Assembly: GCA_038064895.1 (NCBI GenBank) | Contig: JBBTSA010000014.1 | Location: 9,962-61,969, forward strand | Source: Patescibacteria group bacterium | GTDB taxonomy: Bacteria > Patescibacteriota > Microgenomatia > Daviesbacterales > UBA10151 | DNA length: 52,008 nucleotides | Direction of reading: 5' to 3' | Shown here: piece after piece, positions 6,203 through 43,996 of the stretch | Numbering within the stretch: position 1 is the first letter of the stretch | How the letters are laid out: each line of letters opens with the position of its first letter | Made by a program: the position numbers and the translations under genes | Notes under the pieces: model-generated | What the model saw: only the letters and a program-made list of their open reading frames with translations | What the model was told of the DNA's origin: nothing | Databases searched by the model: none

Positions 6203-7381
6203 CTATGGGTTCGAGAATTTGTCAAGTTCCCTTTTAACAAGCTCCAAAATTTCTTTCTTAAATCTCATCTTTGAAAATTTTTCAGCCTGCTTCCTTAAGT
6301 CTTCCGCCTTAAATTTATCTGGATTAAAATCTTTGAGCACTTCTGCCAAACTGTCCACTGTAATCTGTCCCCTGTCCACTCCATACAATATTCCAGTTTT
6401 TTGGTCAACTGTTTCTAAAAATCCACCCTCTTTTGGAGCTATAACAGGAGTGCCACAAGCCTGTGATTCAACTGCAACAATTCCAAAATCCTCATCTTCT
6501 GAAGCTAAAACTGTAGCTTTTGCCCCTGCGTATAATCCAGGAAGTTCCTCGTCACTAACCTGGCCTAAAAATTGTACGTCATTGTGAGGACCCCGAGCCC
6601 CTCGGTCCTGAGGACCTCGGGATCGAAGGACTTGTAGAGGGGGACGAAGCAATCTTTTCAAATTTTCTAGTTCAGGTCCTGATCCAACAACTTTTAGTGG
6701 TAAACCCAGTTTGACACATGCTTCAACAACTGTATCCATTCCCTTACCTCTTACCAATCTTCCAACAGAAAGAAAATATTCTTTTTCCCCTTTACGCTTT
6801 ACCCTTTTCCCTAGTTCCACTGGTGGATATATCACTACACTGTCTCTTCTGTAAAACTTTTTAATCCTATCAGCTACATTTTTTGAATTGGCTACCAAAA
6901 TATCCGGCCGCTGCGAAGTCTCAAAATCATAAATTCTAAGAAAATGATTTGCTATCTCTCCCAAAATTTTAGTTACTGGATTTTTTTTATAATTAAAAGA
7001 GGTTGTATAACCATATAAATACCTTGGAGGAGTATGTATATAGCTTATGTGTAAGCTTCCAGGCTTTGTAATAACAGCCTTCGAAAAATATATTGCACAA
7101 GAAGAGATAACCAAATCATATTCACTCATATCGAAACTTTCAAATATCATTGGTGCAAAAATCCTGAATGGAGAAATTAATCTATTGGCAAATGGAACTC
7201 TTTGTAGCCATGAAGTTCTGATATCCCAATCAGAAAACCGTTTTGCATGGGGTCCTAAACCAGATGGAGTAAAATATGCAATATATACAGGAGCTTTAGG
7301 AAAAATCTCATGCAAAGCTTCTAAAACGCGTTCTGCTCCACCATACTCCTTCAAGTAGTCATGTACCAGGGCGACTTTCAT
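6203..7381 (-). CDS. glycosyltransferase family 4 (GT-B fold)
   Basis: 392 aa. N-terminus MKVALVHDYL..YGGAERV and C-terminal EDFGIVAVESQACGTPVIA (E-x7-E-type motif). Carries a 26-codon repeat-element insertion. Confidence 0.85.
   Translation of the reverse strand: MKVALVHDYLKEYGGAERVLEALHEIFPKAPVYIAYFTPSGLGPHAKRFSDWDIRTSWLQRVPFANRLISPFRIFAPMIFESFDMSEYDLVISSCAIYFSKAVITKPGSLHISYIHTPPRYLYGYTTSFNYKKNPVTKILGEIANHFLRIYDFETSQRPDILVANSKNVADRIKKFYRRDSVVIYPPVELGKRVKRKGEKEYFLSVGRLVRGKGMDTVVEACVKLGLPLKVVGSGPELENLKRLLRPPLQVLRSRGPQDRGARGPHNDVQFLGQVSDEELPGLYAGAKATVLASEDEDFGIVAVESQACGTPVIAPKEGGFLETVDQKTGILYGVDRGQITVDSLAEVLKDFNPDKFKAEDLRKQAEKFSKMRFKKEILELVKRELDKFSNP
6578..6655. repeat. GC-rich mini-element, family A (termini AGATTGCTTCG ... 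CCTCACAATGAC), in frame in the GT4 gene
   Basis: 78 nt = 26 codons, translated RLLRPPLQVLRSRGPQDRGARGPHND. Termini match the copies in polA. Confidence 0.8.
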
Positions 7382-7417
7382 GGTAGCCTAATTTTAGCAG
7401 AAAGTAAGAAGAATTTA

Positions 7418-7609
7418 TTAGGTTTGTTCTCCCAGCTGTCTTTTTAGCATTTCTAAAACTTCTTTTTTGGCTTGTTCTACTGTTTGTCCAGATGCTTTAG
7501 CAGCCTCTTCAAAGGTTTTATTAGTGATATTTTTTTCATCACCCATATTATCATCAGGCATCCCACACCCACAGTTATAACACATAAAATACTTTATACA
7601 AGAATCCAT
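7418..7609 (-). CDS. small Cys-rich hypothetical protein
   Basis: 63 aa. CxxCxC cluster (MCYNCGCGMPDD) followed by a helical acidic/basic tail. Overlaps the 3' end of the upstream hydrolase gene by 35 nt, so the real start may be an internal Met. Confidence 0.45.
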   Translation of the reverse strand: MDSCIKYFMCYNCGCGMPDDNMGDEKNITNKTFEEAAKASGQTVEQAKKEVLEMLKRQLGEQT

Positions 7610-8552
7610 AAAGTTTTACAAGCTCCATTATATTTATTGGCCTGTTTGGCTGAACATGCTCAAAAAGATCAGAAATATGGTAAGCAGCCACTTGATCTTT
7701 AGGCATAGCCTCATAAAGTTTAATAGACTGCGTATATGGAACATATGTATCTGATTTATCATGAAGAATAAATATTTTTGCCTTAAAATCCGAAACAAAT
7801 TCTTTTGGAGAATACCCTTTAAGCCTATTGGCATCTTTAGAATCACTGGTCACAGCAGAATCTGTTGCTACTCCTTTTGCTGCAAGAAGTGTCATAGCAT
7901 GATTTATAGCATCTTGGTGCGGCTTCCATGAAGTTTGGTTACCACGAAGTGGCAAGCTTTGCTTATACAATGCTAAAATATAATCAAAAATATCATAATA
8001 TCCTCCGAAAAAGACTAAAGAGTGTACCTTATCTGCAATTTGAGGATTAGATGAGACAACAAAAGCTGTAGATGAACCAACTGAAAAACCCACAAACGAG
8101 ATTCTTTCAGGATCCGTTTGTGGCAAGCCTTCAAGATATTTAAAGCCTTCAATAAAAGTTCCCGGCTCCTCTGGTAAACTTTCTCCCTTATCCAAAACCT
8201 CAAGCCTTGGCCAAAAAGTTATATACCCAAGTCTTGCCATAGTTTGAGCAAAATGCAAAAGGATGAGTTTATCTTTTTCCGAAGTCTTAACACCCATAGC
8301 TAAAATTACTCCGGAGTCGGGTCCTGGGGATACTGGTATAAATAAATCTGCAACAACTTTTCCGTTTTTAGTTTCAAACCCCTTCTTATCATGAAAAGGA
8401 GCCAAAGTTACAAGGTTTAGTGGTTTTATAGGTATTTGGGGGAATTCCTCTGTAATAAAAAGGATAATTTTTAGATGGGTTATAAGTTGTTTTTGAAGGA
8501 TAATTCCCAGCAAAAGTGCTGTAACTATTAAAACAATTATTAGTCTTTTCAT
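7575..8552 (-). CDS. alpha/beta hydrolase (dienelactone-hydrolase-like), secreted
   Basis: 325 aa. N-terminal signal/TM, nucleophile elbow GFSVGSS, C-terminal His region (LFEHV). Confidence 0.6.
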   Translation of the reverse strand: MKRLIIVLIVTALLLGIILQKQLITHLKIILFITEEFPQIPIKPLNLVTLAPFHDKKGFETKNGKVVADLFIPVSPGPDSGVILAMGVKTSEKDKLILLHFAQTMARLGYITFWPRLEVLDKGESLPEEPGTFIEGFKYLEGLPQTDPERISFVGFSVGSSTAFVVSSNPQIADKVHSLVFFGGYYDIFDYILALYKQSLPLRGNQTSWKPHQDAINHAMTLLAAKGVATDSAVTSDSKDANRLKGYSPKEFVSDFKAKIFILHDKSDTYVPYTQSIKLYEAMPKDQVAAYHISDLFEHVQPNRPINIMELVKLYGFLYKVFYVL

Positions 8553-9994: not shown

Positions 9995-10930
9995 ATGGCT
10001 ACCTTTAAAAAACTTCTATTTGGGCCTTTATTTCTACTTACCTTTACCTTCTTAATTTACCAGCTTAAGACTAACTTGGGTTCATATGAGGTAATTTTTT
10101 CTTTTTCCGCCGCCATTTTAGTCCGACTCCTTGTTTTATCGGGGCTAGTCTGTCTTTCCTCATTTTTATTTGTGCTTTTTGTAAGCTTTTCTTCTGATTG
10201 GAAAATAGTTTTGCCAGTTGCTGCTTTAGCCTCAATTTTACCCATAATTTTTATGAAAGATGCTTCCGGGCTTATTCTTGGAATAGGTCTTTTATTAATC
10301 TTACTTTTAACTTTCTTAACTTTGGAAAATACACTAAAAACTTACCTTAACTTTGAACCAGCTTCTATTTTTGGGCCATCAATTAGACATACGACAACGC
10401 TACTGCTGCTGGTTTTCTCCTTTACTTACTTTTTATCTATGAATAAAATCATTCAAACTCAAGGGTTTGCAATTCCTGATTCTTTAATTGATACTGCTTT
10501 GAAATTTACCCCGACTCAGTCGGGGTTTACAGACACTCCACAAATTGGGCAGGAAGAACAAACACAGACTACTCTTCCACAGATTAGCCAGGAACAGATT
10601 GATCTTTTGAAGCAAAATCCGGATCTTCTAAAACAATCCTGCCTGGATCCTGCTATTTTAGATACCTTAAATAAACCAACAACTAAAACAAATTCTCAAG
10701 ACTTAGTTAAAGAAGCTGTTAAAAGCCAATTGCAAAATTTTATTAAACCATATTTAGGTTTTATCCCAGCAATTATGGCCATACTTTTATTTATTACTCT
10801 TCAATCTTTAACGTCTTTTATAAATTTACTAATCTATCCTTTTCTTTGGATTATATTTTATATTCTGGAGAAATCTAAATTTGTTACTTTTACTACTGAA
10901 ATGAGGCCAGTTAAGAAAATGGTAATTTAA
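9995..10930 (+). CDS. integral membrane hypothetical protein
   Basis: 311 aa. Multiple TM helices separated by a polar Q/T-rich segment. Confidence 0.6.
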   Translation: MATFKKLLFGPLFLLTFTFLIYQLKTNLGSYEVIFSFSAAILVRLLVLSGLVCLSSFLFVLFVSFSSDWKIVLPVAALASILPIIFMKDASGLILGIGLLLILLLTFLTLENTLKTYLNFEPASIFGPSIRHTTTLLLLVFSFTYFLSMNKIIQTQGFAIPDSLIDTALKFTPTQSGFTDTPQIGQEEQTQTTLPQISQEQIDLLKQNPDLLKQSCLDPAILDTLNKPTTKTNSQDLVKEAVKSQLQNFIKPYLGFIPAIMAILLFITLQSLTSFINLLIYPFLWIIFYILEKSKFVTFTTEMRPVKKMVI

Positions 10931-13149
10931 ACTTTTAAAGGTTTCATTTCTCCCCAGTTTGGACCGATTTTAAGATCTACCACCACAGGCACAGAAAGTT
11001 TTAGTGCATTTTCCATTTTATCTTTAACCATCTTAGCTACTTCGCGAACGCTTCGTGGGGTGCATTCAAAGAGTAGTTCATCATGCACTTGAAGAATCAT
11101 GGAACAAGATTGCTTCGTCGCTGACGCTCCTCGCAATGACGAATCGATATCAACCATTGCCCGCTTTATCATGTCAGCAGCTGTTCCCTGCACCGGATGA
11201 TTTATAGCTGCTCTTTCTCCTGCAGCTTTTATCATCCTATTATCAGCTTTAAACTCCGGAATATATCTTCTTCTGCCCCACAAAGTTTCAACATACCCAT
11301 TTTCATATCCAAACTCCAAAGTTTTCTCCACCCATTCCCTGACTTTGGGAAATCCTTCAAAATATTCTGCAATATATTGGCGGGCTATCTCATATTCCAC
11401 ACCTAGCTGACGAGACAGCGCATGTGGACCTTGACCATAAAGTGTTGCAAAATTCATGGTTTTAGCTACATTTCTTTGTTCCTTTGTAACCTTATCTAAG
11501 GGAACTTTAAAAATCTTGGATGCAGTTGCAGCGTGAATATCTAAACCCTCTTCAAAAGCTTTTTGCAGATTCCTGTCCTTACAAAGATGAGCCATCACGC
11601 GAAGCTCAATTTGAGAATAATCTGCTGCCAAAAGCACTTTACCTTTTGGAGCCACAAAAGCTTTGCGAATTTCACCACCCATTTCCCCTTTAATGGGAAT
11701 ATTTTGCAAATTAGGGTTTTGGGAAGAGATTCTACCCGTGGCTGACCCTTCCACATTAAAAGTGGAGTGAATTCTGCCGTCCTCTCCCACAGATTTAGGC
11801 AAAGCATCAATGTAGGTAGAAACAAGCTTAAAAAGAGTCCTGTATTCCAAAAGTAAAGCAATCACAGGATGGGCAGAAGATAGCTCATGTAAAGTTTCCT
11901 CATCAGTTGATCTTCCTGTTTTGGTTTTTTTAAAAACAGGGAGTCTAAGCTCATCAAAAAGAACAACTTGTAGTTGTTTTGGGCTATTCAGATTAAACTG
12001 ATGGCCCACTTTTGAGTAAATTTCTTTTTCAAGTTTTTTTAGTCTACCTTTCAAATCTTTCCCAAGTTTGTTTAAAAATTTAAGATCTATAAGGACTCCT
12101 GTGGCGGACATTTTCTCAAGGATTGGCTGGACACTTTCGTCTAAACTAGCAGTTACGTCATTGCGAGGAGCCGAAGGCGACGTGGCAATCTCTTTTTTAG
12201 ATTGCTTCGCGGAGTTTACACTGAGCGAAGTCGAAGTGCTCGCAATGACATGGGAAGGAGTAACTCCTGGAACCCTAGGAATCAGACTCTTAAACTCCAG
12301 CTCCTCAAACAGTTTCCTCACCTTACCAATATCGAAATCATGAACCACACATTTTTTAAGATCTAATTTAATTGGAGCTTTTAAATCTAAAGTAGCCAAT
12401 TTTTTACTCATCACAGCATCCTCAGCTCCCTCAGCCAGAAGTTTTTGCATCCGCTCAGGCAAAGTTTTTAAATTTTTAGGCAAATAAATTTTTTCAATTG
12501 TGCCAAATTGATGAATTAATTTGGTGGCTGAAACATCTCCTATTCCGGCTACCCCCGGAATATTATCTGAAGCATCCCCTGCCAGGGCTTTATAATCCAC
12601 CAGCAAAACTGGAGAAAATCCATATTTGGCTGCAAATTCCTCTTCTCCATAAAGACCAACATCGGATAAAGTTTTCTTAGGCATTAAAACTTTCACTTTG
12701 CCATTGATAAGCTGCATAATATCTCTATCCCCTGTTACTGCAATAACCTCCAAATCCTTTTGTTCTTGAGCTTGATGAGCCAAAGTTGCTATCAGATCAT
12801 CTGCTTCATATCCTGCAACACTAAATTCAGGGATATTAAATGCTTTTGCTACCTCATGTACCCTTTTGTATTGCTGGCCCAGAGCCTGATCCATCTCTGC
12901 TCTTGTTGCTTTATACTGGGTGTAAGCTTGATGCCTAAAAGTGGGGCCTTTCTCATCCCAACAAACAGCCCAAAACATAGGCTTAAGCTCATTTAAAACC
13001 TTTAAGATCATTGAGGAAAAGCCGTAAACAGCATTCACAAGTTCACCTTTTGAGGTTGTAAAAGGAGGAGTGGCATGATAAGCCCTGTGCAAAAGTGCAT
13101 TTCCATCAACCAAAACCAGTCTTCTTGTCCTTGGCGGCGAAGGATTCAT
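10927..13149 (-). CDS. polA: DNA polymerase I (5'-nuclease + polymerase domains, no 3'-5' exonuclease domain)
   Basis: N-terminal 5'-nuclease motifs (LVDGNALLHRAYHA, GDASDNIPGV). Polymerase motifs (DYSQIELR, RNVAKTMNFATLYG, QVHDE). I prefer the ATG at 13149 over the TTG at 13155. Contains three repeat-element units. Confidence 0.9.
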   Translation of the reverse strand: MNPSPPRTRRLVLVDGNALLHRAYHATPPFTTSKGELVNAVYGFSSMILKVLNELKPMFWAVCWDEKGPTFRHQAYTQYKATRAEMDQALGQQYKRVHEVAKAFNIPEFSVAGYEADDLIATLAHQAQEQKDLEVIAVTGDRDIMQLINGKVKVLMPKKTLSDVGLYGEEEFAAKYGFSPVLLVDYKALAGDASDNIPGVAGIGDVSATKLIHQFGTIEKIYLPKNLKTLPERMQKLLAEGAEDAVMSKKLATLDLKAPIKLDLKKCVVHDFDIGKVRKLFEELEFKSLIPRVPGVTPSHVIASTSTSLSVNSAKQSKKEIATSPSAPRNDVTASLDESVQPILEKMSATGVLIDLKFLNKLGKDLKGRLKKLEKEIYSKVGHQFNLNSPKQLQVVLFDELRLPVFKKTKTGRSTDEETLHELSSAHPVIALLLEYRTLFKLVSTYIDALPKSVGEDGRIHSTFNVEGSATGRISSQNPNLQNIPIKGEMGGEIRKAFVAPKGKVLLAADYSQIELRVMAHLCKDRNLQKAFEEGLDIHAATASKIFKVPLDKVTKEQRNVAKTMNFATLYGQGPHALSRQLGVEYEIARQYIAEYFEGFPKVREWVEKTLEFGYENGYVETLWGRRRYIPEFKADNRMIKAAGERAAINHPVQGTAADMIKRAMVDIDSSLRGASATKQSCSMILQVHDELLFECTPRSVREVAKMVKDKMENALKLSVPVVVDLKIGPNWGEMKPLKV
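11107..11140. repeat. GC-rich mini-element, family A, in frame in polA (palm region)
   Basis: agattgcttcgtcgctgacgctcctcgcaatgac, read on the coding strand as SLRGASATKQS just upstream of QVHDE. Confidence 0.75.
12157..12249. repeat. two family-A mini-elements in inverted orientation, in frame in polA (inter-domain linker)
   Basis: gtcattgcgaggagccgaaggcgacgtggcaatct ... agattgcttcgcgg..gtgctcgcaatgac. 93 nt = 31 codons (VIASTSTSLSVNSAKQSKKEIATSPSAPRND). Confidence 0.85.
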
Positions 13150-14195: not shown

Positions 14196-15401
14196 ATGAG
14201 GATCGCATATTTTACAGACACTTTCCTGCCACAGGTTAATGGAATTGCCACTTCCCTTGCAAATCAGGCCAAATATTTGGGAGATCATGGTCATAAAGTT
14301 TTAATTTTTACCCCTAAGCTTGACGATATACCAAGGAAAAAATTTCAAGCCAAAAATGTTAAAGTTGTAAACTTACCTGCAGTTCCTTCTTTAATTTATA
14401 CAGAATTTAAATTTGGGGTGTTTGGCTTGCCTCAAGTTATAAAACACTTAACCGAATTTAAACCTGATATTATTCATCTTCACTCAAATTTTACTGTAGC
14501 CATGGATGCTTTAATGGCAAAAAAAATCTTTAAAAAACCCCTGGTTGGAACCATACATGTTTATTTTGCTGAAAATGATTATCTTAAATTTATAAAATTC
14601 AGGCTGGCAGTTAAGATTTTGGGTAAATTTGCAAAGCGCTATCTGGACTTTTTATACAACCAGTGCGATCTCCTTTTAACCCCTTCCAAAATACTGATTG
14701 AGGAGCTAAGAAATAAAGGGTATAAAAAAGAAGTTTATTATCAGCCTAATGGGATAGATTTAAACCATCCAAAATTCTTATCTGCAAAACAAAAAGATGA
14801 TCTTAAGAAAAGGTATGGACTTAAAGAAAAAGTCATTTTGCATTTTGGCAGACTCTCTTATGAAAAAAGTATTGATGTTTTAATAAAAGCTTTTGATCCT
14901 TTAATTCACCATCAAAATGTCAGCCTTCTGATAATTGGCCATGGGCCTGCTACTAAAAGTCTTATCAGGCTTACAAAAAAATTAGGTCTTGAGAAATCTG
15001 TGGTGTTTACAGGATTTATTGATCATCAGGCACTTATCTCTTCAGGGCTTTTATCGATAGGTGACTTGTTTGCAACAGCCTCACCAATGGAGGTTAGCCC
15101 CATGGTTGTACTTGAGGCAATGGCTTTTGGACTGCCAATTGTGGGAGTTGAGGCAGCAGGAATGGTTGAGCTTGTATCTGATAATGGCTACCTTGTTAAA
15201 AAAGGCAGTATTCGGGAGTTAACAGAAAAAATGGAGAAGATTTTATTTGATAAAGCAATTGCCTCACAAATGAGCAAAAATTCCCTTAATGCTGTGAAGG
15301 AATATTCTATTGCCAAAACTACTTCCCATCTGCTTAAGTTATATCAAAGTCTTTTAAAACACTCTTCGGCCCTTTCGGATAATATAACTCTTTCCGTCTG
15401 A
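14196..15401 (+). CDS. glycosyltransferase family 4
   Basis: 401 aa. MRIAYFTDTFLPQVNGIATS N-terminus and EVSPMVVLEAMAFGLPIVG C-terminal motif. Confidence 0.85.
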   Translation: MRIAYFTDTFLPQVNGIATSLANQAKYLGDHGHKVLIFTPKLDDIPRKKFQAKNVKVVNLPAVPSLIYTEFKFGVFGLPQVIKHLTEFKPDIIHLHSNFTVAMDALMAKKIFKKPLVGTIHVYFAENDYLKFIKFRLAVKILGKFAKRYLDFLYNQCDLLLTPSKILIEELRNKGYKKEVYYQPNGIDLNHPKFLSAKQKDDLKKRYGLKEKVILHFGRLSYEKSIDVLIKAFDPLIHHQNVSLLIIGHGPATKSLIRLTKKLGLEKSVVFTGFIDHQALISSGLLSIGDLFATASPMEVSPMVVLEAMAFGLPIVGVEAAGMVELVSDNGYLVKKGSIRELTEKMEKILFDKAIASQMSKNSLNAVKEYSIAKTTSHLLKLYQSLLKHSSALSDNITLSV

Positions 15402-22685: not shown

Positions 22686-22737
22686 ATTCTAATATGTATC
22701 CCTTGAATTAGCAAAACCTAAAAGTTAAACTGATGAC

Positions 22738-30976: not shown

Positions 30977-31111
30977 CAGCGCACCATACGGTGCACTGCT
31001 GTCGCCACTCTAAAAGAGATACTTTGGAATATGATGAAGGTCCGATAACAGTAGTGCGCGTTGAGATGCGCCGAATGGCGCGTCTCCACCCCTTCTTGGT
31101 AGAATTAAATA

Positions 31112-32666: not shown

Positions 32667-32684
32667 GAGGTAATGTGGTTATAT

Positions 32685-32720
32685 ATAAAAAGTTCTAACA
32701 GCATCCTCCCCCCGCAACAC
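32685..32720. repeat. 36-nt direct repeat ending in a copy of the tRNA(CAU) 3' end
   Basis: ATAAAAAGTTCTAACAgcatcctccCCCCGCAACAC. Positions 32704-32719 match tRNA 30963-30978 at 15/16 nt. Confidence 0.75.
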
Positions 32721-33495: not shown

Positions 33496-33546
33496 AGCCT
33501 GATATTAAAACACATTCAGTTCGTTGAATCAAATAAACTAAGCTAA

Positions 33547-33582
33547 ATAAAAAGTTCTAACATCGTTCCATCCCCGCAACAC
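33547..33582. repeat. 36-nt direct repeat, second copy
   Basis: ATAAAAAGTTCTAACAtcgttccatCCCCGCAACAC. Shares both flanks (16 nt + 11 nt) with 32685-32720. Confidence 0.75.
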
Positions 33583-34035: not shown

Positions 34036-34899
34036 ATGACCGCTCTTAAAGATGCCCACAAACAATTTATTGACTATCTTAAGGGCAAAAATCGTGCCTC
34101 TGCTACTATCTTAGCCTATGGGAAAGACATTGATCAACTGGTAGTCTATTTGGAGAACTTAGGCAAAACCGATCCAGACACAGTTAACACTGAAGATCTC
34201 CAAGCTTTCATGGAAAAATTATCAAAAGAAGCTTATACCCCAAAATCAATCTCAAGAAAAACAAATTCAACTAAAACATTCTTTAAATTCCTAAAAACCC
34301 AAGGATTTGCTAATGAAGATGCGGCAGCAGGACTTTTACATCCCAAATTTGAGAATAAGCCTCCAAGAATATTAACAAAGCTTGAATATAGAGCCTTAAG
34401 GGATGCTGCCAGAACAGATGTTAGAATGCTTGGTGTTATTGAACTCTTACTCCAAACTGGTGTTAGGATTGGTGAACTTGCAAAACTTAGAGTTGAAGAT
34501 ATAGATTTACAAAATGGGACAATCCATGTTCCCCTATTTGAAGATACAAGAGAAAGAACTATCCCATTAAATACTCCTGCTGCAGAGGCAGTTAGAAAAT
34601 ATTTGGAAATAAGACCCAAAACTCAAAACCATGCACTTTTTATTACTAAAACAGGAAGACCCCTTTTAATTAGAAATATTAGGGCTGCAATTGATAGATA
34701 TTTTAGAATTGCAGGAATAAAGATGGCTAAAGTTAATGACTTAAGACACACCTGGGTTGCACATCAGCTTCAATCAGGAGTATCTTTGGTAACTGTTTCC
34801 AAGCTTGCAGGGCATAAAAGATTATCAACAACTGAAAGATATCTTCAATTCATCCAAAACCATAATGGAGATAGTAAGGTAAAACTGGAGGAATTATAA
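34036..34899 (+). CDS. tyrosine recombinase, XerC/XerD family
   Basis: 287 aa. N-terminal SAM-like core-binding domain. Catalytic region RIGEL.., LRHTWVAH, GHKRLSTTERY (R..HxxR..Y). Confidence 0.85.
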   Translation: MTALKDAHKQFIDYLKGKNRASATILAYGKDIDQLVVYLENLGKTDPDTVNTEDLQAFMEKLSKEAYTPKSISRKTNSTKTFFKFLKTQGFANEDAAAGLLHPKFENKPPRILTKLEYRALRDAARTDVRMLGVIELLLQTGVRIGELAKLRVEDIDLQNGTIHVPLFEDTRERTIPLNTPAAEAVRKYLEIRPKTQNHALFITKTGRPLLIRNIRAAIDRYFRIAGIKMAKVNDLRHTWVAHQLQSGVSLVTVSKLAGHKRLSTTERYLQFIQNHNGDSKVKLEEL

Positions 34900-36127: not shown

Positions 36128-36169
36128 AAGTAACCTGTCCTTCGGACAGAACGAACCAGGAACCAGTTG

Positions 36170-36241
36170 TAGGCCCGGAAGGAGTCGAACCCTCGTCATC
36201 ACTGTATAAGAATGAGGTATTAACCGTTATACGACGGGCCT
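36170..36241 (-). tRNA. tRNA-Ile (anticodon UAU)
   Basis: Hand-folded 72-nt cloverleaf: AGGCCCG/CGGGCCT acceptor stem, U8, D stem GTAT/ATAC with GG loop, anticodon stem TCATT/AGTGA, loop CTTATAC, T arm GAGGG-TTCGACT-CCTTC, discriminator A. Confidence 0.85.
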
Positions 36242-36275
36242 GTTAGGAATTATACCAAAGCTCACCTTAAGTGTC

Positions 36276-36342
36276 ATGCCGAATCCTGAAAGTGTTATCC
36301 CGAATTTATTTCGGGATCTTCAGGACAAGCTTGTTTCGGCAT
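36276..36342. repeat. 67-nt imperfect palindromic element
   Basis: ATGCCGAAtCCTGAAagtgttATCCCGAAtttatTTCGGGATcTTCAGGacaagcttgtTTCGGCAT. It overlaps the 3' end of the GIY-YIG ORF and supplies its C-terminal tail. Confidence 0.75.
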
Positions 36343-36619
36343 CTACTGATAAATCCCTAAGAGTTGGATTAGTATTTTTAATCAAATTTAGCTTCCATTC
36401 TCTGTGCCAATTCTTTAATTGTTTTTCTCTTACTAATGCATCGTTTACCTGACTACACTCTTCAAAATAAATTAATTTCTTCAGTTTGTACTTTTTAGTA
36501 AAACCATCTATAAGTTCATTTTTGTGTTCATATATTCTTCTCTCTAGATTATTGGTAACCCCTATATAAAGGGTTGTATTGTTTTTATTAGTTAGAATAT
36601 ACACATAGTAAGAATTCAT
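36320..36619 (-). CDS. GIY-YIG nuclease family protein (small)
   Basis: 99 aa. YYVYILTNKNNTTLYIGVTNNLERRIYEHK, ALVREKQLK. The last about 15 aa are encoded by the palindromic element. Confidence 0.8.
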   Translation of the reverse strand: MNSYYVYILTNKNNTTLYIGVTNNLERRIYEHKNELIDGFTKKYKLKKLIYFEECSQVNDALVREKQLKNWHREWKLNLIKNTNPTLRDLSVDAETSLS

Positions 36620-36657
36620 GAAAGAGACCCTTAAACAAGTTCAGGGTGACAATAAAA

Positions 36658-39316: not shown

Positions 39317-40036
39317 ATGCAACTTAAGGCTAAAAAAATCAAAAAAGAAACTAAAGGCATCTTTAGTTTAATTTTGGAAAAACCAGAAAATTTTATGTTT
39401 TATCCTGGACAATTTTTAGATATTGAACTACCAGTGAATGATCCAAAAGGTAACACCAGAATTTTATCTATTTCATCATCCCCCTCTGAAGATTTTATAA
39501 TGCTTACCTTTAAGCTAACTTCAAGTCCTTTTAATAAGAAGTTGCAGGATTTAAAGGTAGGTGATTTAATTTCTTCCTCTTATCCTGCTGGAACTGTAGT
39601 TATAGATGATTCATCTCCTATTATCTTTATGGCAGGAGGAATTGGAATTGCTCCACACAGATCTATGATTAAATGGGCAGTGGATCAATCCCGATTAAAT
39701 CGGGATCAAAAGCTTAATTTACCAATAACCTTAATTTATTCCAATTCAGATTCAGATTTTATATTCAAAAAAGAGCTGGATCAGTGGGTAAAAACTTATC
39801 CCAAACTTACTATCCACTACATAGTTACATCAAAAGATGGCCGTTTGGATTCAGAGAAATTAAAACTATACCCTATACCCTACCTCCGCGGAGCGGAGGC
39901 AAGCTCTGCTTATACCCTATATCCTATCTTCTACCTGGCTGGACCTCCAAGTATGGTTGATGATTTTGAAAATATTCTTTTAAATTTAGGAATTGATGAA
40001 ACTTCAATAAGAACTGATAGATTTGATGGGCTTTAG
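39317..40036 (+). CDS. FNR-type FAD/NAD(P)-binding oxidoreductase
   Basis: 239 aa. RILSISS (RxYS-type FAD motif), MAGGIGIAP (NAD-binding), C-terminal YLAGPPSMV. Contains an in-frame GC-rich insertion. Confidence 0.75.
   Translation: MQLKAKKIKKETKGIFSLILEKPENFMFYPGQFLDIELPVNDPKGNTRILSISSSPSEDFIMLTFKLTSSPFNKKLQDLKVGDLISSSYPAGTVVIDDSSPIIFMAGGIGIAPHRSMIKWAVDQSRLNRDQKLNLPITLIYSNSDSDFIFKKELDQWVKTYPKLTIHYIVTSKDGRLDSEKLKLYPIPYLRGAEASSAYTLYPIFYLAGPPSMVDDFENILLNLGIDETSIRTDRFDGL
39868..39925. repeat. GC-rich palindrome (CCTCCGCGGAGCGGAGG) flanked by TACCCTAT-type short repeats, in frame
   Basis: Translated YPIPYLRGAEASSAYTLYP, directly before the conserved YLAGPP motif. Confidence 0.7.
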
Positions 40037-40381
40037 GGTTCTCCCTTTCCTACCATAAATCCCTTGATAAATCACTTTACCCACAATTTGATCCATATTT
40101 ATTGGTCCAAAATCTCTACTATCAATACTTTCTTGTTTGTTGTCACCCTCAAGCCAAACCTGATCACCATCAATTTTCTGTATTCTTTTTATAATTTCCC
40201 TGTTCACTGTACCTCTTCGAGCCTGAGCCTCAGAGCCGAAGGCCTGTTTACTGTTAATTACTACAATATCTCCAACTTTTGGATTTACAAACCAATTAAC
40301 AGACAAAACATCCTGACCAGGATAAAGGGTTGGAGTCATGGAATTACCTGAAACTGTAAATCTTGAAATTGGACTTTTCAA
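40004..40381 (-). CDS. sodX: S26-family peptidase, Ni-SOD maturation protease-like
   Basis: 125 aa. VSGNSMTPTL catalytic Ser motif. Immediately downstream of sodN, overlapping it by 4 nt. Confidence 0.7.
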   Translation of the reverse strand: MKSPISRFTVSGNSMTPTLYPGQDVLSVNWFVNPKVGDIVVINSKQAFGSEAQARRGTVNREIIKRIQKIDGDQVWLEGDNKQESIDSRDFGPINMDQIVGKVIYQGIYGRKGRTLKPIKSISSY

Positions 40382-40821
40382 TGTGTGTGAGTTTTTTCAA
40401 AAATAACTGCTATTTTATCAACAGCTTCAATTAACTCCTTGGCTTTTACTTCATCCACTGCCCTTTTATTATCAGAACATAGTTTGGCTGTTTTCCAAAT
40501 TAGATCATGAAGATCCGGAAATTTTTCTAAATGTTCACTCTTAAAATAATCTGTCCAAAGAATAAGAATTTCTTTTTTACAAATTTCTGCATGTTCTTCT
40601 TTAACCTGAACCATCCTAACAAAACTATTTCTATCTTCCACAGAAGCATTTTCCTTCGGGAGTTCATTAATTTTTTGAACCATGGTTAAGACAGTCTTAG
40701 CAGCAAGCTGGGCACTTTTAGGATCATAAATTCCGCAAGGAATATCACAATGAGCATATACTGACCTTGTAGGAAGAAGTTTAATTAAAAAATCCAGAAT
40801 TCTCACAATTTTATTATACAC
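40378..40821 (-). CDS. sodN: nickel superoxide dismutase precursor
   Basis: 147 aa (GTG start). Ni-hook HCDIPCGIYDP preceded by a cleavable leader. Confidence 0.85.
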   Translation of the reverse strand: MYNKIVRILDFLIKLLPTRSVYAHCDIPCGIYDPKSAQLAAKTVLTMVQKINELPKENASVEDRNSFVRMVQVKEEHAEICKKEILILWTDYFKSEHLEKFPDLHDLIWKTAKLCSDNKRAVDEVKAKELIEAVDKIAVIFEKTHTH

Positions 40822-40823: not shown

Positions 40824-40910
40824 ATTTTAAATTTTCTAAATCCCGATCTAATCGGGATAAATATTCTTCTGCTTGCCCCGCGAAGCCTTGGCGAAGTGGG
40901 GCATCAAAGG
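40824..40910. repeat. direct repeat DR1: copy of the trxB 3' coding end, itself interrupted by a 30-nt GC-rich element (40873-40902)
   Basis: 40824-40869 is 46/46 identical to 43024-43069. It still reads EEYLSRLDRDLENLK-stop, and the sodN GTG start follows that pseudo-stop directly. Confidence 0.85.
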
Positions 40911-41463: not shown

Positions 41464-41530
41464 AGTTTAACTCCAACTTACTATATATACTAAGTATATA
41501 CTTTATATATACCTAATGTCAAGTCTTAAT

Positions 41531-41583
41531 ATTTTCTAAATCCCGATCAAATCGGGATAAATATTCTTCTGCATCAAATGCTG
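41531..41583. repeat. direct repeat DR2: diverged copy of the trxB 3' coding end
   Basis: attttctaaatcccgatcAaatcgggataaatattcttcTGcatcaaatgcTgc. Still an open frame reading AAFDAEEYLSRFDRDLENIKT-stop. Confidence 0.8.
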
Positions 41584-41594
41584 CTTAATTTTTC

Positions 41595-42405: not shown

Positions 42406-42413
42406 AGAACTGG

Positions 42414-43025
42414 CTAAACTACTTCAGCTACTACCCTTGCTGGAGCACCATCAAGTTGAAGTTTTAAAGGAAGAGCATAAATCTTAAATTCCTTGCCTTC
42501 AAGCTGCTCTACATTTGTTAGATTTTCAATTATTAGAATACTATTTTTAAGCAGAATTTTATGGATGGGAAATGTTGTATCACCCTTATCTACACTGCAG
42601 TTATCCAAACCCACCATTTTTACTCTTTTAGCTACAAGATAATTTGCAACCTCCTCATCCATAACCGGGTAATTATCATAATATTCCTGCTTTCCCCACA
42701 AATTGGCCATTCCTGTATTAAATACAACAATATCCCCCTCCCTAATATCAGCCCTTTCAATTTCAGTAAAATCAAAATCTTTAGTATTTATATAAACTCC
42801 TCTTCCTATCAGTCTATCCAACAGGAATTCATCCAAGTTTTTTCCCCCGGATATCATATGTCTTGGGGCATCAACGTGGGTGCTAACATGGGTACAAAAG
42901 GAAACATAATGTTGTTCAAAACCATCTTTTTCCAAATCTCCGGCATTTTCAATTTTATTTGCTGGATCACCGGGGAAAATAGGCATTCTTTCGGTTATTG
43001 GATGTGATAAATCAATAAATTTCAT
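42414..43025 (-). CDS. cyclase-family protein / kynurenine formamidase-like
   Basis: 203 aa. IDLSHPI..PIFPGDP, HVSTHVDAPRH, GLDNCSVD, IENL..PLKL..GAPARV. Full putative-cyclase motif set. Its ATG overlaps the trxB stop (ATGA). Confidence 0.8.
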   Translation of the reverse strand: MKFIDLSHPITERMPIFPGDPANKIENAGDLEKDGFEQHYVSFCTHVSTHVDAPRHMISGGKNLDEFLLDRLIGRGVYINTKDFDFTEIERADIREGDIVVFNTGMANLWGKQEYYDNYPVMDEEVANYLVAKRVKMVGLDNCSVDKGDTTFPIHKILLKNSILIIENLTNVEQLEGKEFKIYALPLKLQLDGAPARVVAEVV

Positions 43026-43996
43026 TTTAAATTTTCTAAATCCCGATCTAATCGGGATAAATATTCTTCAACATCAAATGCAGCTTTGCATCCCATGCCT
43101 GCTGCTGTGACTGCTTGTCTGTAATGATAATCAGCAACATCACCTGCTACAAATACCCCTTTCACTTCCGTATGGGTTTCATTTAAAACCTTCACATATC
43201 CTTTTTCATCTAAAGGCAGTTGTCCTTTTAAAAATCCTGTATTTGGCTTGTGACCTATGGCAATAAATACTCCATCTATTCCTAATTGGCTAATCTTCCC
43301 ATTTTGAGTATTTTTTAATCTCACTCCTGTTACTTTATCCTGTCCTGAGCTTGTCGAAGGATCTTGTCCTAATATCTCCTCAACAACAGTATTCCAGATA
43401 AAATCTACATTTTTCTTGGATTTTACTAACTCTTGTAATGCTAATTGTGCTCTAAGTTTATCACGACGATGAACCACAATTACTTTTTTACAAAGTTTGG
43501 AAAGATAGGCTGCCTCCCTCATGGCAGTATCCCCTCCTCCAACAACAATTACATTTTTATCTTTAAAGAAAAATCCATCACAAACAGCACAGGATGAAAC
43601 ACCTTTGCCGATTAACCTTTGTTCAGAGGGAATTCCCAACCACATTGCAGAGGCACCAGTGGCTATAATCAAGGTTTCAGTTTTCAGGTTACAGGTTTCA
43701 GTTTTAATAACAAATGGTCTAGCTTGCAAATCAACTGATACAACATCCTCATCAACGAATCTGGTATCAAATCTCTCTGCCTGCTTTCTCATTTTTTCCA
43801 TCAGCTCCGGCCCTTGGATGCCAGTATCAAAGCCTGGGAAATCATCAACATCAGTTGTAAGCATAAGCTGTCCCCCAGCTTCCCTGCCAGACACCACCAC
43901 AGGAGCTAAGCTCCCACGAGCAGCATAAATTGCAGCTGTTAAACCAGCAGGGCCTGAACCAATGATGATCAGTTTCTCAATCGTGGATTTGTCCAT
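43022..43996 (-). CDS. trxB: thioredoxin-disulfide reductase
   Basis: 324 aa. GSGPAGLTAAIYAAR, redox CAVCDG, GGGDTAMREA, GVFVAGDV. Confidence 0.92.
   Translation of the reverse strand: MDKSTIEKLIIIGSGPAGLTAAIYAARGSLAPVVVSGREAGGQLMLTTDVDDFPGFDTGIQGPELMEKMRKQAERFDTRFVDEDVVSVDLQARPFVIKTETCNLKTETLIIATGASAMWLGIPSEQRLIGKGVSSCAVCDGFFFKDKNVIVVGGGDTAMREAAYLSKLCKKVIVVHRRDKLRAQLALQELVKSKKNVDFIWNTVVEEILGQDPSTSSGQDKVTGVRLKNTQNGKISQLGIDGVFIAIGHKPNTGFLKGQLPLDEKGYVKVLNETHTEVKGVFVAGDVADYHYRQAVTAAGMGCKAAFDVEEYLSRLDRDLENLK
43024..43084. repeat. direct repeat DR3 = authentic 3' end of trxB
   Basis: Template of DR1 and DR2. Contains the 8-bp inverted repeat atcccgat-cta-atcgggat. Confidence 0.85.
43338..43370. 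repeat. short family-B GC-rich element in frame in trxB
   Basis: The core cctgagcttgtcgaagga reads PSTSSG on the coding strand. These are the same termini and frame as the 36-nt copies in the synthetase genes. Confidence 0.7.

Follow-up and report, generated by a model that had tools for sequence, protein, structure and literature searches.

GC-rich blocks in frame in housekeeping genes of a Candidatus Daviesbacteria genome are probably tagged-hairpin repeats spread by a GIY-YIG nuclease

How do short GC-rich blocks come to lie in frame in many housekeeping genes of an AT-rich genome? The question arises from a stretch of 52,008 nucleotides (the window) of a groundwater Candidatus Daviesbacteria (CPR/Patescibacteria) genome, from an ultra-small bacterium. 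The original prediction described two motif families, A and B, as palindromic elements that interrupt none of their host genes and resemble the RPEs of Rickettsia. The sequences at the listed positions read as described, every listed host open reading frame (ORF) was uninterrupted, and the encoded peptides were those given earlier (..AKQS.. / ..PRND and PST..SG). The Family A sequence GTCATTGNGAGG has three matches in the window versus 0.01 expected, besides the variant GTCATTGCGAGC at 12238-12249. The Family B pattern CCTGAGC..(0-30)..GTCGAAGG has four versus 0.00 expected, besides longer or variant copies at 19961-20025 and 21378-21418. A chance origin of the recurrence is thus excluded. A pattern-like copy at 30801-30817 and further copies at 45787-45812 and 10509-10526 had not been listed.

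The GC content and hairpin potential of the elements contrast sharply with those of their host genes. Folded as single strands, only about 9 of 16 elements were significantly more stable than shuffled sequences (z from -2 to -7); the copies in the GT4, trpS, trxB and S26-peptidase genes and the single copy in polA folded no better than shuffles. For a palindrome reported at "33583-37", the coordinate was garbled, although a GC-rich, mostly intergenic stretch is present there.

Family A elements lie in the GT4 and polA genes. In the GT4 glycosyltransferase gene (6203-7381, minus strand), an element of the type GTCATTGTGAGG....GCAATCT (6578-6655, plus strand) is read as RLLRPPLQVLRSRGPQDRGARGPHND; comparison with homologues gave no clean separation from native sequence, and its boundaries could not be fixed. 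In polA, a single unit with the tag CGTCATTGCGAGG on the minus strand (11107-11140) lies in the palm/fingers region and is read as SSLRGASATKQS; Taq polymerase has a 5-residue gap at this position. A tail-to-tail dimer of 31 codons (12157-12249; 12157-12191 on the plus strand and 12199-12249 on the minus strand; fold z = -4.9 versus shuffles) occupies the linker that joins the 5′-3′ exonuclease and polymerase domains. An identical copy of its 35-nt unit 12157-12191 is present in the alpha-subunit gene of another genome (L007). Among 209 fetched loci, 15 contained the Family A 11-mer, which was often arranged in inverted pairs.

Family B and related hairpins occupy other genes. The CoA-ligase alpha-subunit gene carries two inserts. 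At site 2, a Family B core, CCTGAGC..GTCGAAGG with the apical hairpin CCGGC-GATA-GCCGG (23581-23615, plus strand; z = -2.7), is in frame and read as NPSTLRLSPDRSGL. At site 1, an inverted pair of CGTCAC-tagged units, CACACCTCGGAGGTG / CACACCTCCGAGGTG (23957-24011; z = -5.65), is read as HTSEVKQGATNHTSEV. Solved homologues have gaps of 14 and 9 residues at the insert positions, the 14-residue gap at site 2 being that of PDB 2yv2. A second core with an apical hairpin (25144-25178, plus strand) lies in frame in the beta (ATP-grasp/citrate-binding) subunit, where it is read as SPSTLQLSPDRSG; it is 84% identical to the alpha copy over 50 nt and has the same apical variant. In trxB, a minimal unit, CCTGAGCTTGTCGAAGG (43344-43360, plus strand), is read in frame as PSTSSG, and PDB 6bwt and 7e52 have a 7-residue gap there. 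The gaps in TrxB and the CoA-ligase alpha subunit agree with the earlier suggestion that the extra peptides fall where E. coli SucD and TrxB have no residues.

The copy reported at the 5′ end of trpS is present (21378-21418, plus strand, a Family B variant), and its context can now be specified. It lies in a 22-residue N-terminal extension of TrpRS (20371-21435, minus strand), which orthologues lack, since they start at MKRILTGD. In the relative L006, the start region is present twice, and the element lies between the two copies, within the 5′ UTR. Inverted copies of neighbouring host sequence adjoin the trpS element. A Family B unit with a nested B-like hairpin (19961-20025, plus strand; z = -5.15) is non-coding and precedes the start codon of ftsH by about 25 nt; no such unit was found upstream of ftsH in the relatives L004 to L008.

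Three more elements lie between 39877 and 40902. An S26-type signal peptidase gene (40004-40381, minus strand) carries, in frame, a Family B variant missing from the earlier list, CCTGAGCCTCAGAGCCGAAGG (40222-40242, plus strand), which has an 11-nt flanking direct repeat (p ~ 0.02). The FNR-like oxidoreductase gene contains, in frame, the GC-rich hairpin CCTCCGC-GGA-GCGGAGG (39877-39904, plus strand; z = -2.9), with no recognised tag and with a flanking 16-nt direct repeat, TATACCCTATAyCCTA (p < 0.004). The hairpin TGCCCCGC....GTGGGGCA (40869-40902, plus strand; z = -1.1) is intergenic, upstream of a Ni-superoxide dismutase gene.

Orthologues indicate whether such segments were gained. For the alpha subunit, we aligned 35 and then 120 Daviesbacteria CoA-ligase orthologues, about 100 of them classifiable per site. 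Site 1 was empty in 70 of 100 and site 2 in 90 of 106, while in the non-empty orthologues these same loops held repeats of no fewer than five different families. Empty and filled sites were resolved at the codon level. The beta subunit and TrpRS gave a like pattern; for example, the beta site is empty in L004 and L008, and L007 has a different, NTS-like insert there. The original reading of the segments as insertions was thus upheld, with close orthologues lacking them or carrying other elements at the same codons. Judged from these alignments, the in-gene copies are derived insertions that are polymorphic among Daviesbacteria orthologues. The positions used are few and permissive: loops, an interdomain linker, an N-terminus and 5′ leaders. 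New units frequently lie within or beside older ones, as dimers or in three-deep nesting. No target-site duplication of constant length was found around the window elements, where direct repeats were 7-16 nt or absent. The expected recurrence of the motifs elsewhere was also seen: identical or nearly identical units were found in unrelated genes and genomes.

Both motif sets are real, but their separation hides a common plan, and Families A and B are best regarded as one tagged-hairpin superfamily linked to GIY-YIG genes, not as separate inventions. A unit would consist of an unpaired tag (C/T)GTC, a stem starting with A(T/C), an apex that is either short or variable, and the tail (A)TCT. In these terms, Family A is GTC-ATTGC-GAG..variable..-GCAAT-CT, and Family B (GTC-AY)-CCT-GA-G-CTTGT-C-GA-AGG-(RT), with a tandem G.A mismatch in the stem. 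At least 120 loci, which represent more than 15 phyla, contain the Family B core, with a conserved upstream flank (GTTCGC, TGTCAC or TGTCAT). Its closing pair covaries, being Watson-Crick in 124 of 138 cases versus 76 expected (G.T 11, A.C 0). Units at the orthologous site in L008 are textbook examples, TGTC-ATTCCGGC-GGAA-GCCGGAAT-CT, and one fits the published expression for Ssn-related motifs (SRMs). Of 68 distant tagged hairpins on CPR-rich contigs, 35 were located within ORFs at least 120 aa long, and literal NTS-like units were among these 35. Against this assignment, the published SRM search expression had no matches among the window's own copies, a generic tag-plus-hairpin finder showed no enrichment in the window (8 versus 6.6 in shuffles), and most window Family B copies lack the AY after GTC or the whole tag.

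Repeats with a (C/T)GTC-tagged hairpin partner with small GIY-YIG single-strand nucleases. The window has three GIY-YIG ORFs. One of them (36320-36619, minus strand; 99 aa; Pfam GIY-YIG E = 1.4e-18) is a small single-domain nuclease gene for a putative Ssn-like partner enzyme. It has more than 5000 homologues across CPR; PDB and NCBIfam searches gave only weak, generic GIY-YIG matches. The hairpin TGTC-ACCCTGAA-CTTG-TTTAAGGGT-CTC (36627-36650, minus strand) lies 12 nt upstream of its ATG. What had been taken for a decayed Family B copy at 36628-36646 is actually this intact 5′-flanking unit. Around the stop codon is an inverted unit, GTCATGCCGAA...TTTCGGCATC (36276-36342, plus strand; z = -6.99), with two hairpins nested inside to give three nested stems. 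As had been proposed, it forms the tail of the ORF, supplying the last codons and spanning the stop region.

We surveyed the flanks of homologues at 80 metagenome loci, of which 72-76 were scored per question. A forward unit was present upstream in 58 of 76, in the same position and orientation as in the window, and an inverted unit downstream in 61 of 76; both flanks were occupied in 44 of 72. The 80 loci contained 248 tagged hairpins versus 25 in shuffles, with compensatory stem variants. Small GIY-YIG genes of this kind are bracketed by a forward and an inverted unit. A GIY-YIG gene of Eremiobacterota is flanked by three forward and three inverted Family B units. On the other side, when 120 Family B loci were checked for a GIY-YIG gene no more than 8 kb away, just one had it.

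The blocks are probably copies of (C/T)GTC-tagged hairpin repeats of the CGTC-REP superfamily, spread with the help of such nucleases. The GIY-YIG protein would be a nuclease of the Ssn type, with the tagged hairpin on single-stranded DNA as its recognition site, and would drive or permit the copying of the unit, with extruded hairpins or loops of resident units as preferred targets. As the genome is roughly 90% coding, most landings would be in genes, and only in-frame, stop-free copies at tolerant surface positions would survive, with extra loop residues predicted on translation. The in-gene copies are probably mostly degenerate and inert.

It is possible, if doubtful, that the repeats are genuine but spread by another route. 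Either a different enzyme would copy them, such as the RAYT/IS200-type tyrosine transposases that serve GTAG REPs, or copies would arise at hairpins by replication slippage, template switching or gene conversion. For the nuclease, the repeats would then be no more than recognition sites, used, for instance, in the restriction of incoming single-stranded DNA that has been proposed for Neisseria. For Ssn proteins, single-stranded DNA cleavage and an effect on transformation were demonstrated, not mobility (Chenal et al. 2025), and it was concluded that CGTC REPs have no dedicated transposase (Di Nocera et al. 2013, PMC3733652). The variable or absent direct repeats are easier to reconcile with repair or slippage than with a fixed staggered cut, and the inverted host-sequence copies beside the trpS element and the duplicated start region in L006 point the same way. 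However, no tyrosine transposase was found among the window ORFs scanned (about half of them), and the nuclease gene very regularly has a forward unit on one side and an inverted unit on the other, an arrangement that is typical of autonomous elements.

Retention of the in-gene copies for a function in place is unlikely. They might tune expression, recombination or DNA uptake through RNA or DNA structure or provide useful surface peptides, and Family B might be an RNA module, a tandem-G.A, tetraloop-receptor-like hairpin. In the window, P5 and P8 of a group I intron are hairpins that resemble Family B (30800-30818 and 30879-30897, plus strand); the resemblance may not reflect kinship, or B units may have moved into the intron. 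The core loop conserved in more than 15 phyla, the strand asymmetry at the closing pair (G.T versus A.C) and the repeated occupation of two alpha-subunit loops would also suit a function. Yet most orthologues lack an insert at these loops, the occupants are of different families and lengths and encode different peptides, several copies are degenerate and lack a stable fold, and all in-gene Family B copies in the window are antisense to the mRNA, so that B-sense RNA would not be produced from the host transcript. Ordinary lineage-specific variable loops or low-complexity linkers, made by normal indels and not by repeat copies, are very improbable. Distant homologues do differ in the length of the insert loops (Brucella TrxB, 4jnq, for example, is longer at the same loop) and the GT4 case is not cleanly separable, but the same DNA strings, up to 35 identical nt, occur in unrelated genes, intergenic DNA and other genomes, which contradicts such an origin; the contrast of the elements with their host genes also speaks against it. 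If the elements were removed ahead of translation or in its course, by excision like that of introns or by the ribosomal bypass known from byp elements of a yeast mitochondrion, the proteins would be free of the extra peptides. In favour of this, the elements share with mitochondrial GC clusters and byp elements the form of GC-rich hairpins in AT-rich surroundings. Such removal is hardly to be expected, since all in-gene copies keep the frame without host-frame stop codons in at least 10 independent cases, a constraint not expected under removal. Their lengths and sequences are too varied for a common excision signal, and no Rfam intron or ribozyme match was found at element sites.

The reading that we prefer, repeats spread by a GIY-YIG nuclease, places the window among known systems. 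Our literature searches found no report of in-frame hairpin repeats in CPR/Patescibacteria, in agreement with the original prediction. In-frame REPs have, however, been published for Rickettsia, Opitutus and Thauera among others, including in polA and tRNA-synthetase genes (PMC3733652), so that the novelty is narrower than that prediction implied. The Neisseria dRS3/NTS repeats are the "Ssn-related motifs" of Chenal et al. 2025, with which the CGTC-REP superfamily would overlap. CGTC REPs include RPE-4 and RPE-6 of Rickettsia (Di Nocera et al. 2013), whose tagged architecture is that of the window elements; the RPE-like behaviour proposed for these mobile-looking, in-frame palindromic mini-elements is thus a literal likeness. 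Since the window repeats are of the same widespread bacterial kind as some RPEs and Neisseria NTS, GC-rich hairpin repeats in frame in CPR housekeeping genes extend a known phenomenon to a new host; the phenomenon itself is not new.

The window is AT-rich (GC about 36%) and its genes lie mostly on the minus strand. An exact match to the protein of its CoA-ligase alpha subunit was present in Hainich groundwater assemblies of the 0.1 µm filter fraction, and the nearest named relatives of this subunit were from Candidatus Daviesbacteria and the Microgenomates (CPR/Patescibacteria). Pfam agreed with the host genes named in the original prediction: a GT4 glycosyltransferase, PolA, TrxB, TrpRS, FtsH, an FNR-like reductase, and a CoA-ligase alpha subunit with an ATP-grasp/citrate-binding beta subunit. 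The gene set of the CoA-ligase pair, first called a CoA synthetase (21933-25721), was syntenic across every Daviesbacteria locus fetched. The pair looks like a citryl-CoA synthetase or ATP-citrate-lyase type, not a plain succinyl-CoA synthetase. The beta subunit has a Pfam Citrate_bind domain, and a citrate-synthase-like ORF of 250 aa lies next to the pair. The alpha subunit matched PDB 6hxq (citryl-CoA synthetase small subunit, 1.9e-57), and succinyl-CoA synthetase alpha chains matched better (for example 2yv2, 2.4e-73).

The GC-rich palindromes predicted in these genes were all found when the window was read directly. For the Family B hairpin, CCTGAGC(N0-30)GTCGAAGG occurred 4 times in the window, where 100 dinucleotide-preserving shuffles gave an expectation of 0.00. 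Six copies, every one on the plus strand, were counted once longer gaps or a single substitution were permitted; one of the six, at 30801-30817, had been overlooked. The sequence GTCATTGNGAGG occurred 3 times against 0.01 expected, with an additional variant GTCATTGCGAGC. About 17 elements were counted in the 52 kb, two of them dimers, and about 12 of the 17 were within ORFs. Each host ORF reads in frame through its element and encodes the predicted peptide. When folded as single-stranded DNA (ssDNA), 9 of 16 elements were more stable than their shuffles (z from -2.0 to -7.0). The copies in the GT4 gene, trpS and the S26-type peptidase gene, the single polA copy and the minimal trxB copy folded no better than shuffles under this ssDNA energy model, which gives no credit to tandem G.A pairs. 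Because an Rfam scan of the entire window at the gathering threshold gave two tRNAs only, the elements are not a curated RNA family. The S26-type peptidase gene, which contains a Family B variant, follows a nickel superoxide dismutase gene (Sod_Ni, E = 1e-44), the two genes spanning 40004-40821 (-), and its product is presumably the Sod_Ni maturation protease.

The original prediction had placed the extra peptides where E. coli SucD and TrxB have no residues, and alignment to solved structures found such gaps. The TrxB peptide PSTSSGQ corresponded to a 7-residue gap, the alpha-subunit peptides NPSTLRLSPDRSGL and HTSEV..HTSEV to gaps of 14 and 9 residues, and the PolA unit at residues 672-683 to a 5-residue gap. 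The 31-codon polA dimer was placed in the linker joining two matched PolA domains. For GT4, alignment to solved structures did not fix the edges of the insert. Insert mapping was based on these alignments, because the quality of an AlphaFold model of the alpha subunit was too low (mean pLDDT 59).

The alpha subunit gave the most detailed comparison. Daviesbacteria alpha subunits have 293-346 residues, with a base form of 294. Among the best 120 matches, 100 could be classified at site 1 (window 23957-24011) and 106 at site 2 (23581-23615). Site 1 had a minimal linker of 3-4 residues in 70 of the 100 and 5-38 extra residues in the other 30. Site 2 was minimal in 90 of the 106, and in 8 it held a PST..SG insert that added 6-22 residues. 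By peptide, at least five families occupy site 1: VIAS..AKQS / ..PRND; VILR.. / ..AQND; VIPA..AGI. / ..GMT; xTSEV..xTSEV; and LPAGRQ. At the codon level, the Daviesbacteria locus L004 had no insert at either site, and the window, L006, L007 and L008 each had a different tail-to-tail dimer at site 1. The inserts were thus absent from most alpha-subunit relatives. Since the empty sites are in the majority and agree with distant homologues, the inserts represent the derived state.

Other host genes gave a similar picture. The beta subunit had a B-type insert in the window, none in L004 and L008, and another insert, one that contains DSRLRGND, at the same position in L007. A second window-specific insertion of about 7 residues is at beta-subunit residues ~213-220 (window 25040-25100), reading ENPDLIGVEFPE against E-------KFPE in three orthologues. 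TrpRS orthologues begin MKRILTGD, and the window gene has 22 further N-terminal residues that include the element. An in-frame palindrome that orthologues lack, as in RPEs, was therefore present at two sites each in the alpha subunit and PolA, and also in the beta subunit, TrxB and TrpRS. As judged by these alignments, the segments are insertions.

Several observations concern the relation of the inserts to one another. The polA unit GTCATTGCGAGGAGCCGAAGGCGACGTGGCAATCT (12157-12191) is identical to an inverted unit in the alpha-subunit gene of another genome (L007). The same uncommon apical hairpin is present in the Family B copies of the alpha and beta subunits, which have 84% identity over 50 nt. 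The Family A 11-mer was found in 15 of 209 loci that had been fetched for other purposes, frequently as inverted pairs 60-80 nt apart, and these loci include two Bacteroidota genomes. Newer units also lay next to or within older ones: there were dimers, a B unit within a B unit upstream of ftsH, the apical hairpin within the B units of the alpha and beta subunits, and nesting three deep at 36273-36345. By their sequence the elements are copies of a dispersed repeat.

Unpaired tags of the CGTC type (CGTC, TGTC or CCTC at one end of the unit) are present among the elements. All four Family A copies start (a)CGTCATTG(C/T)GAG; the family starts aCGTCATTG(C/T)GAG and closes GCAATCT. The alpha-subunit palindrome starts CGTCAC, and the units flanking the GIY-YIG gene start TGTCAC and GTCATG. 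For Family B in the window, GTC immediately preceded CCTGAGC in just 2 of 6 copies. Units at the orthologous alpha-subunit site of L008, TGTC-ATTCCGGC-GGAA-GCCGGAAT-CT and TGTC-ATCCCGGA-CTTG-ATCCGGGAT-CC, are textbook CGTC-type. The canonical stem, loop and tail (8-9 bp with an A-T start, a 4-5 nt loop) were seen at 36627-36650, in L008, in two further fetched loci (L138 and L191) and in the GIY-YIG flanks. The in-gene copies of the window deviate: in Family A a long, imperfect apex sits on a base of 5 bp (ATTGC/GCAAT), and in Family B the stem of CCT, G.A/A.G and G-C is capped by a loop of 5 nt or by an additional apical hairpin.

The published SRM expression, HGTCWYN(0-2)YYVSBRHN(0-5)WNVSBRGN(0-2)RNCYNB, had no match in the window (0.12 expected). 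It matched the second L008 unit (that with the CTTG loop), in frame at the orthologous alpha-subunit site of L008/L009. In CPR-rich and Family B loci, its matches in real against shuffled sequence were 2 against 0, 6 against about 2, and 18 against about 6. A generic tag-plus-hairpin finder, effective only for the cleaner units near GIY-YIG genes, showed no enrichment in the window (8 against 6.6 in shuffles). Because of the zero SRM matches and the imperfect stems, we did not file the window copies as literal SRMs and treat them as degenerate or variant forms of the tagged architecture.

The window has three ORFs for small single-domain GIY-YIG proteins of 80, 87 and 99 aa (Pfam, E 1e-15 to 1e-21). 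The 99-aa ORF also had a weaker overlapping match to the related T5orf172 domain. As a sequence test of Ssn membership, comparison with PDB and NCBIfam gave no more than weak, generic GIY-YIG matches. The 99-aa gene (36320-36619, minus strand; Pfam GIY-YIG) has the unit TGTC-ACCCTGAA-CTTG-TTTAAGGGT-CTC 12 nt upstream of its ATG. This is what had been taken for a decayed Family B copy; it is the forward 5′-flanking unit of the gene. A second palindrome, described as the tail of the GIY-YIG ORF, does cover the last codons and the stop, and is in fact an inverted unit with two nested hairpins. Directly downstream of the gene and this nested 3′ repeat is a tRNA-Ile gene (anticodon TAT; 36169-36241, minus strand).

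Homologues of the 99-aa protein numbered more than 5000 (E <= 1e-5), with 66-100% identity for the best 120. Those with a source name were mostly from the CPR (Saccharimonadales, Levybacteria, Roizmanbacteria, Curtissbacteria, Patescibacteria group); one was from candidate division KSB1. In many of the homologues the C-terminus is D(A/P)ETSS(A/G), which is the inverted unit translated up to the TGA in CATGAC. We surveyed the flanks of 80 metagenomic loci with such homologues, a CPR-rich set. In 58 of 76 loci a forward tagged hairpin was present no more than 150 nt upstream; 61 of 76 had an inverted hairpin downstream, and 44 of 72 had both. In total, the 80 loci had 248 tagged hairpins, against 25 in shuffled sequence. 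The flanking stems vary by compensatory change (ATGCTGAA, ATCCTGAA, ATGCCGAA, ATCCCGAA, ATTCCGAA and ACCCTGAA, each paired with its complement). Tagged hairpins at distances above 500 nt from the nuclease gene numbered 68, and 35 of them were within ORFs of at least 120 aa, some of these being chance AT-rich matches. The canonical GC-rich units among the 35 encode VIPAKAGI, DSRLRGND, IPNQVRDD and GSRNEFGMT. Domain content, size and the layout of gene and repeats suggest, by analogy, a link of the GIY-YIG protein to SsnA.

Family B was found far outside the CPR. At least 120 stretches, spread over more than 15 phyla, contained its minimal core CCTGAGCTTGTCGAAGG. The matches listed include Pseudomonadota, Bacteroidota, Chloroflexota, Actinomycetota, Cyanobacteriota, Acidobacteriota, Planctomycetota, Verrucomicrobiota, Nitrospirota, NC10 and several CPR groups. 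Among these matches the six upstream bases were conserved (GTTCGC, TGTCAC, TGTCAT, CGTCAC and similar); the tag was GTC[AG][CT] in 24, GTTC[AG][CT] in 34 and GCTC, CCTC or GGTC in 16 of the 138 copies listed. The stem-closing pair was Watson-Crick in 124 of these 138 against 76 expected, with G.T in 11 and A.C in none. The conserved upstream bases and the excess of Watson-Crick closing pairs argue that the core matches are not due to chance. The asymmetry between G.T and A.C, a feature of the aligned copies, is an indirect hint that ssDNA beside the repeat may be cut in a strand-specific way. As a hairpin the core reads CCT, tandem G.A-A.G and G-C around a CTTGT loop. This is the layout of the units flanking the GIY-YIG genes (ACCCTGAA-CTTG-TTTCAGGGT), and an intermediate, GTCACCCTGAGCTTGTCTCAGGGT, was found among flanking units. 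In the Eremiobacterota locus L099, a GIY-YIG ORF lies between three forward and three inverted Family B units with their CGTCAC/TGTCAT tags outward.

A group I intron (30744-30936) was detected within 30713-30978 (+) (Rfam RF00028, 68.7 bits against a gathering threshold of 50, E = 2.3e-17). The whole-window Rfam scan and ARAGORN had both missed it. By our own reading of the splice boundaries, the intron interrupts a tRNA(CAU)-like gene in its apparent anticodon loop (CU|CAUAA). ARAGORN made no call on the hand-spliced tRNA. The tRNA(CAU) assignment was made because the intron-less homologue at L007 2801-2872 scores as a tRNA (46.4 bits). The P5 (30800-30818) and P8 (30879-30897) stems of the intron are Family-B-like (CCCTGAGCAAGTCGAAGGG and CCCTGAGTTTATCGAAGGG). 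In introns of the Azoarcus type, these two stems serve as tetraloop receptors. The core of Family B could accordingly be a module of RNA type; alternatively, B units could have entered the intron. Two more small GIY-YIG genes surround the tRNA(CAU) gene, at 29697-29939 (-) and 31112-31375 (+) in the window and at 2339-2677 (-) and 2931-3206 (+) in L007; this arrangement is common to the two Daviesbacteria genomes and the surrounding genes are unlike. Between one of these GIY-YIG genes and the intron-bearing tRNA, the window has an HTH-containing ORF of 250 aa (29942-30694), and the GIY-YIG gene at 31112 has an upstream hairpin of its own (GAGAYGCRCC..GGYGCRTCTC).

Two longer repeats were also noted in the window. 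A 61-nt repeat with the hairpin ATCCCGAT-yAr-ATCGGGAT is present at 40826-40886, 41526-41586 and 43026-43086 (77-100% identical; also 39687-39709). One copy encodes a native-looking TrxB C-terminus (EEYLSRLDRDLENLK) that aligned to the end of PDB 6bwt, and the other two are downstream of toxin-antitoxin ORFs. The repeat ends no more than about 5 nt from the next gene start for the copies at 40826 and 43026, against about 60 nt for that at 41526. A 39-nt direct repeat (32682-32720 and 33544-33582, 82% identical) ends ..CCCCGCAACA(C/G), and the same string, CCCCGCAAC, is the 3′ acceptor end of the tRNA(CAU) gene (30967-30980; L007 3185-3200). The 39-nt copies may be fragments of tRNA ends or remnants of attachment sites. 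At 34036-34899 there is a gene for a tyrosine recombinase.

How the units reach their sites can be approached from their flanks. No constant target-site duplication was found, and flanking repeats were clearly significant, with unequal lengths, at 2 of the 14 sites tested. These were the FNR-like insert (39860-39920; direct repeat TATACCCTATAyCCTA, 16 nt, p < 0.004) and the S26 peptidase insert (40200-40260; CTGTTyACTGT, 11 nt, p ~ 0.02). The trxB insert (43330-43375; ATCyTGTCCT, p ~ 0.07) and the beta subunit were marginal, and the remaining sites had none. In trpS (21330-21440), the element has a diverged copy of the start region of trpS on either side (ATGAAAAGCATATTAAC ... AAAAAACGCATTCTCAC), and inserted sequence forms a perfect hairpin of 10 bp (GTGAGAATGC/GCATTCTCAC) with the host codons R-I-L-T. 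In L006 (~15090-15255) the trpS start region is duplicated, the downstream copy retains the ATG and the element is in the 5′ UTR. The duplicated start in L006 and the inverted copies of neighbouring host sequence leave room for a repair- or slippage-based route. We ruled out inteins and self-splicing introns at the in-gene sites, as the inserts are too short and had no Rfam match. An assembly artefact was also ruled out: the identical alpha-subunit protein was on 5 contigs (the three shown are from three samples), and analogous inserts occur across many independent assemblies.

Sequence comparison establishes the elements as derived, polymorphic, dispersed copies of tagged hairpins, concentrated at a few tolerant positions. 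In the mechanism we consider most probable for them, the GIY-YIG protein, a putative Ssn-type nuclease, would recognize the tagged strand as ssDNA and promote its copying. Extruded hairpins of resident units would be the preferred landing sites. The survivors would be in-frame, stop-free copies in surface loops, linkers and termini, and would be translated. The fraction within ORFs, about 12 of 17, approximates what untargeted landing followed by selection would give, given a coding share of about 90% for the window (judged roughly from the list of ORFs, not a computed value). A stronger reading is that, in the CPR, nuclease-associated hairpin units are a major and ongoing source of new surface loops in core proteins, that they arrive non-randomly by homing into the ssDNA hairpin loops of resident units, and that Family B is an RNA-type tandem-G.A (tetraloop-receptor-like) module common to P5 and P8 of the tRNA group I intron. 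We consider this whole reading improbable. Homing into resident hairpin loops, if true, would produce different families at one codon position across lineages and nesting up to three deep. A module common to Family B and the intron P5/P8, if true, would suggest that intron hairpins and genomic repeats have undergone exchange.

CPR/Patescibacteria proteins are noted for odd length variation. In at least one lineage, part of this variation would be copies of a repeat superfamily inserted in ORFs and predicted to be translated, not lineage-specific functional domains. Such in-gene repeats bear on annotation, alignment-based phylogeny and structure prediction for the CPR. The CPR nuclease, with more than 5000 homologues and a common repeat-gene-repeat arrangement (44 of 72 sampled), offers an unusually good set for asking whether nucleases of the Ssn type mobilize their repeats at all. 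Repeats of the REP, RPE or Ssn type in CPR/Patescibacteria were the subject of no paper in our literature search, in line with the original prediction that the phenomenon was undescribed for this kind of genome, and a literature string search with the motif sequences returned unrelated primers only.

CGTC-tagged REPs have an unpaired CGTC/TGTC/CCTC tag, an 8-9 bp stem with an A-T start, a 4-5 nt loop and a short tail, and frequently form dimers (Di Nocera, De Gregorio & Rocco 2013, BMC Genomics 14:522; PMC3733652). They are known from five phyla (Proteobacteria, Chlorobi, Bacteroidetes, Spirochaetes and Thermotogae), and no dedicated enzyme was found for them (PMC3733652). In Rickettsia conorii the copies within genes correspond to RPE-4 and RPE-6; Opitutus, Thauera and other bacteria also have in-frame copies, particularly in polA, uvr genes, dnaE and tRNA synthetase genes, and many in-gene copies are dimers encoding 20-30 residues (PMC3733652). 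The window units are likewise GC-rich tagged stem-loops with dimers, several families per genome and in-frame genic copies, and the L008 alpha-subunit units and the GIY-YIG-flanking units fit the description exactly. In contrast to the published REPs, the host here is a member of the CPR, outside the published phyla; Family A has a 5-bp base and variable apex and Family B has tandem G.A, often with an apical hairpin, in place of the canonical stem; and the window dimers are tail-to-tail, an arrangement that is rare according to PMC3733652.

NTS (CGTCATTCCCGCGMAVGCGGGAATCYRG) and Ssn-related motifs flank genes for single-domain GIY-YIG proteins of ~94 aa, whose Ssn products cut ssDNA beside the motif (Chenal et al. 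2025, Nat Commun 16:2388; PMC11893778). Neither the CPR nor RPEs are mentioned in the text of that paper, in which repeats were on both sides in 42% of the GIY-YIG homologues surveyed and NTS were within genes in just 2% of cases in N. meningitidis (PMC11893778). Like NTS, the units start (C)GTCAT, fold as a hairpin and end AATCY, and literal NTS-like units (TGTCATTCCCGCGAAGGCGGGAATCTA) occur in CPR-rich contigs, some within ORFs. As at SsnA loci, repeat-gene-repeat was found at window 36320-36619 and in 61% (44/72) of our loci, against 42% in PMC11893778, and the small single-domain GIY-YIG gene is present (80, 87 and 99 aa against ~94 aa). The differences are that about 12 of 17 window elements are in ORFs, against the 2% of N. 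meningitidis NTS, and that the published degenerate expression for SRMs misses every window copy.

RPE-1 is a longer element, of about 100-150 bp. As summarized in PMC3733652, RPEs broadly (RPE-1 and others; Ogata et al. 2000, 2002) are similar in that palindromes lie in frame within conserved protein-coding genes of a genome that is small and AT-rich, and RPE-decorated proteins, like those here, apparently still function. It is this behaviour to which the original prediction referred. The likeness is by analogy, in behaviour and through the statement that RPE-4 and RPE-6 are CGTC REPs. GTAG REPs with RAYT (REPtrons) and IS200/IS605 elements also combine hairpins recognized as ssDNA with a small enzyme gene between its own inverted repeats, and GTAG REPs are partly genic, for example in Opitutus terrae (PMC3733652). 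REPtrons differ in having a GTAG tag and an HUH tyrosine transposase rather than a GIY-YIG enzyme; no gene for such a transposase was found among the scanned window ORFs. Coxiella burnetii QMITEs and other bacterial MITEs in ORFs (PMC5896051, PMC2759123) are small non-autonomous repeats that can give host proteins coding sequence, as here; MITEs are 70-300 bp with IS-derived terminal inverted repeats, unlike the single hairpins of 17-50 nt in this window.

Tagged hairpin repeats in frame in conserved genes are thus already published for several phyla (PMC3733652), and no new element class is revealed. What is new is the CPR host, the variable apex of Family A, the tandem G.A stem and very wide distribution of Family B, the high in-gene share, and the repeated occupation of the same loops by different families. 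These observations join the work on CGTC REPs and RPEs to that on Ssn nucleases and NTS, and extend both to a phylum-level group that is new to either paper.
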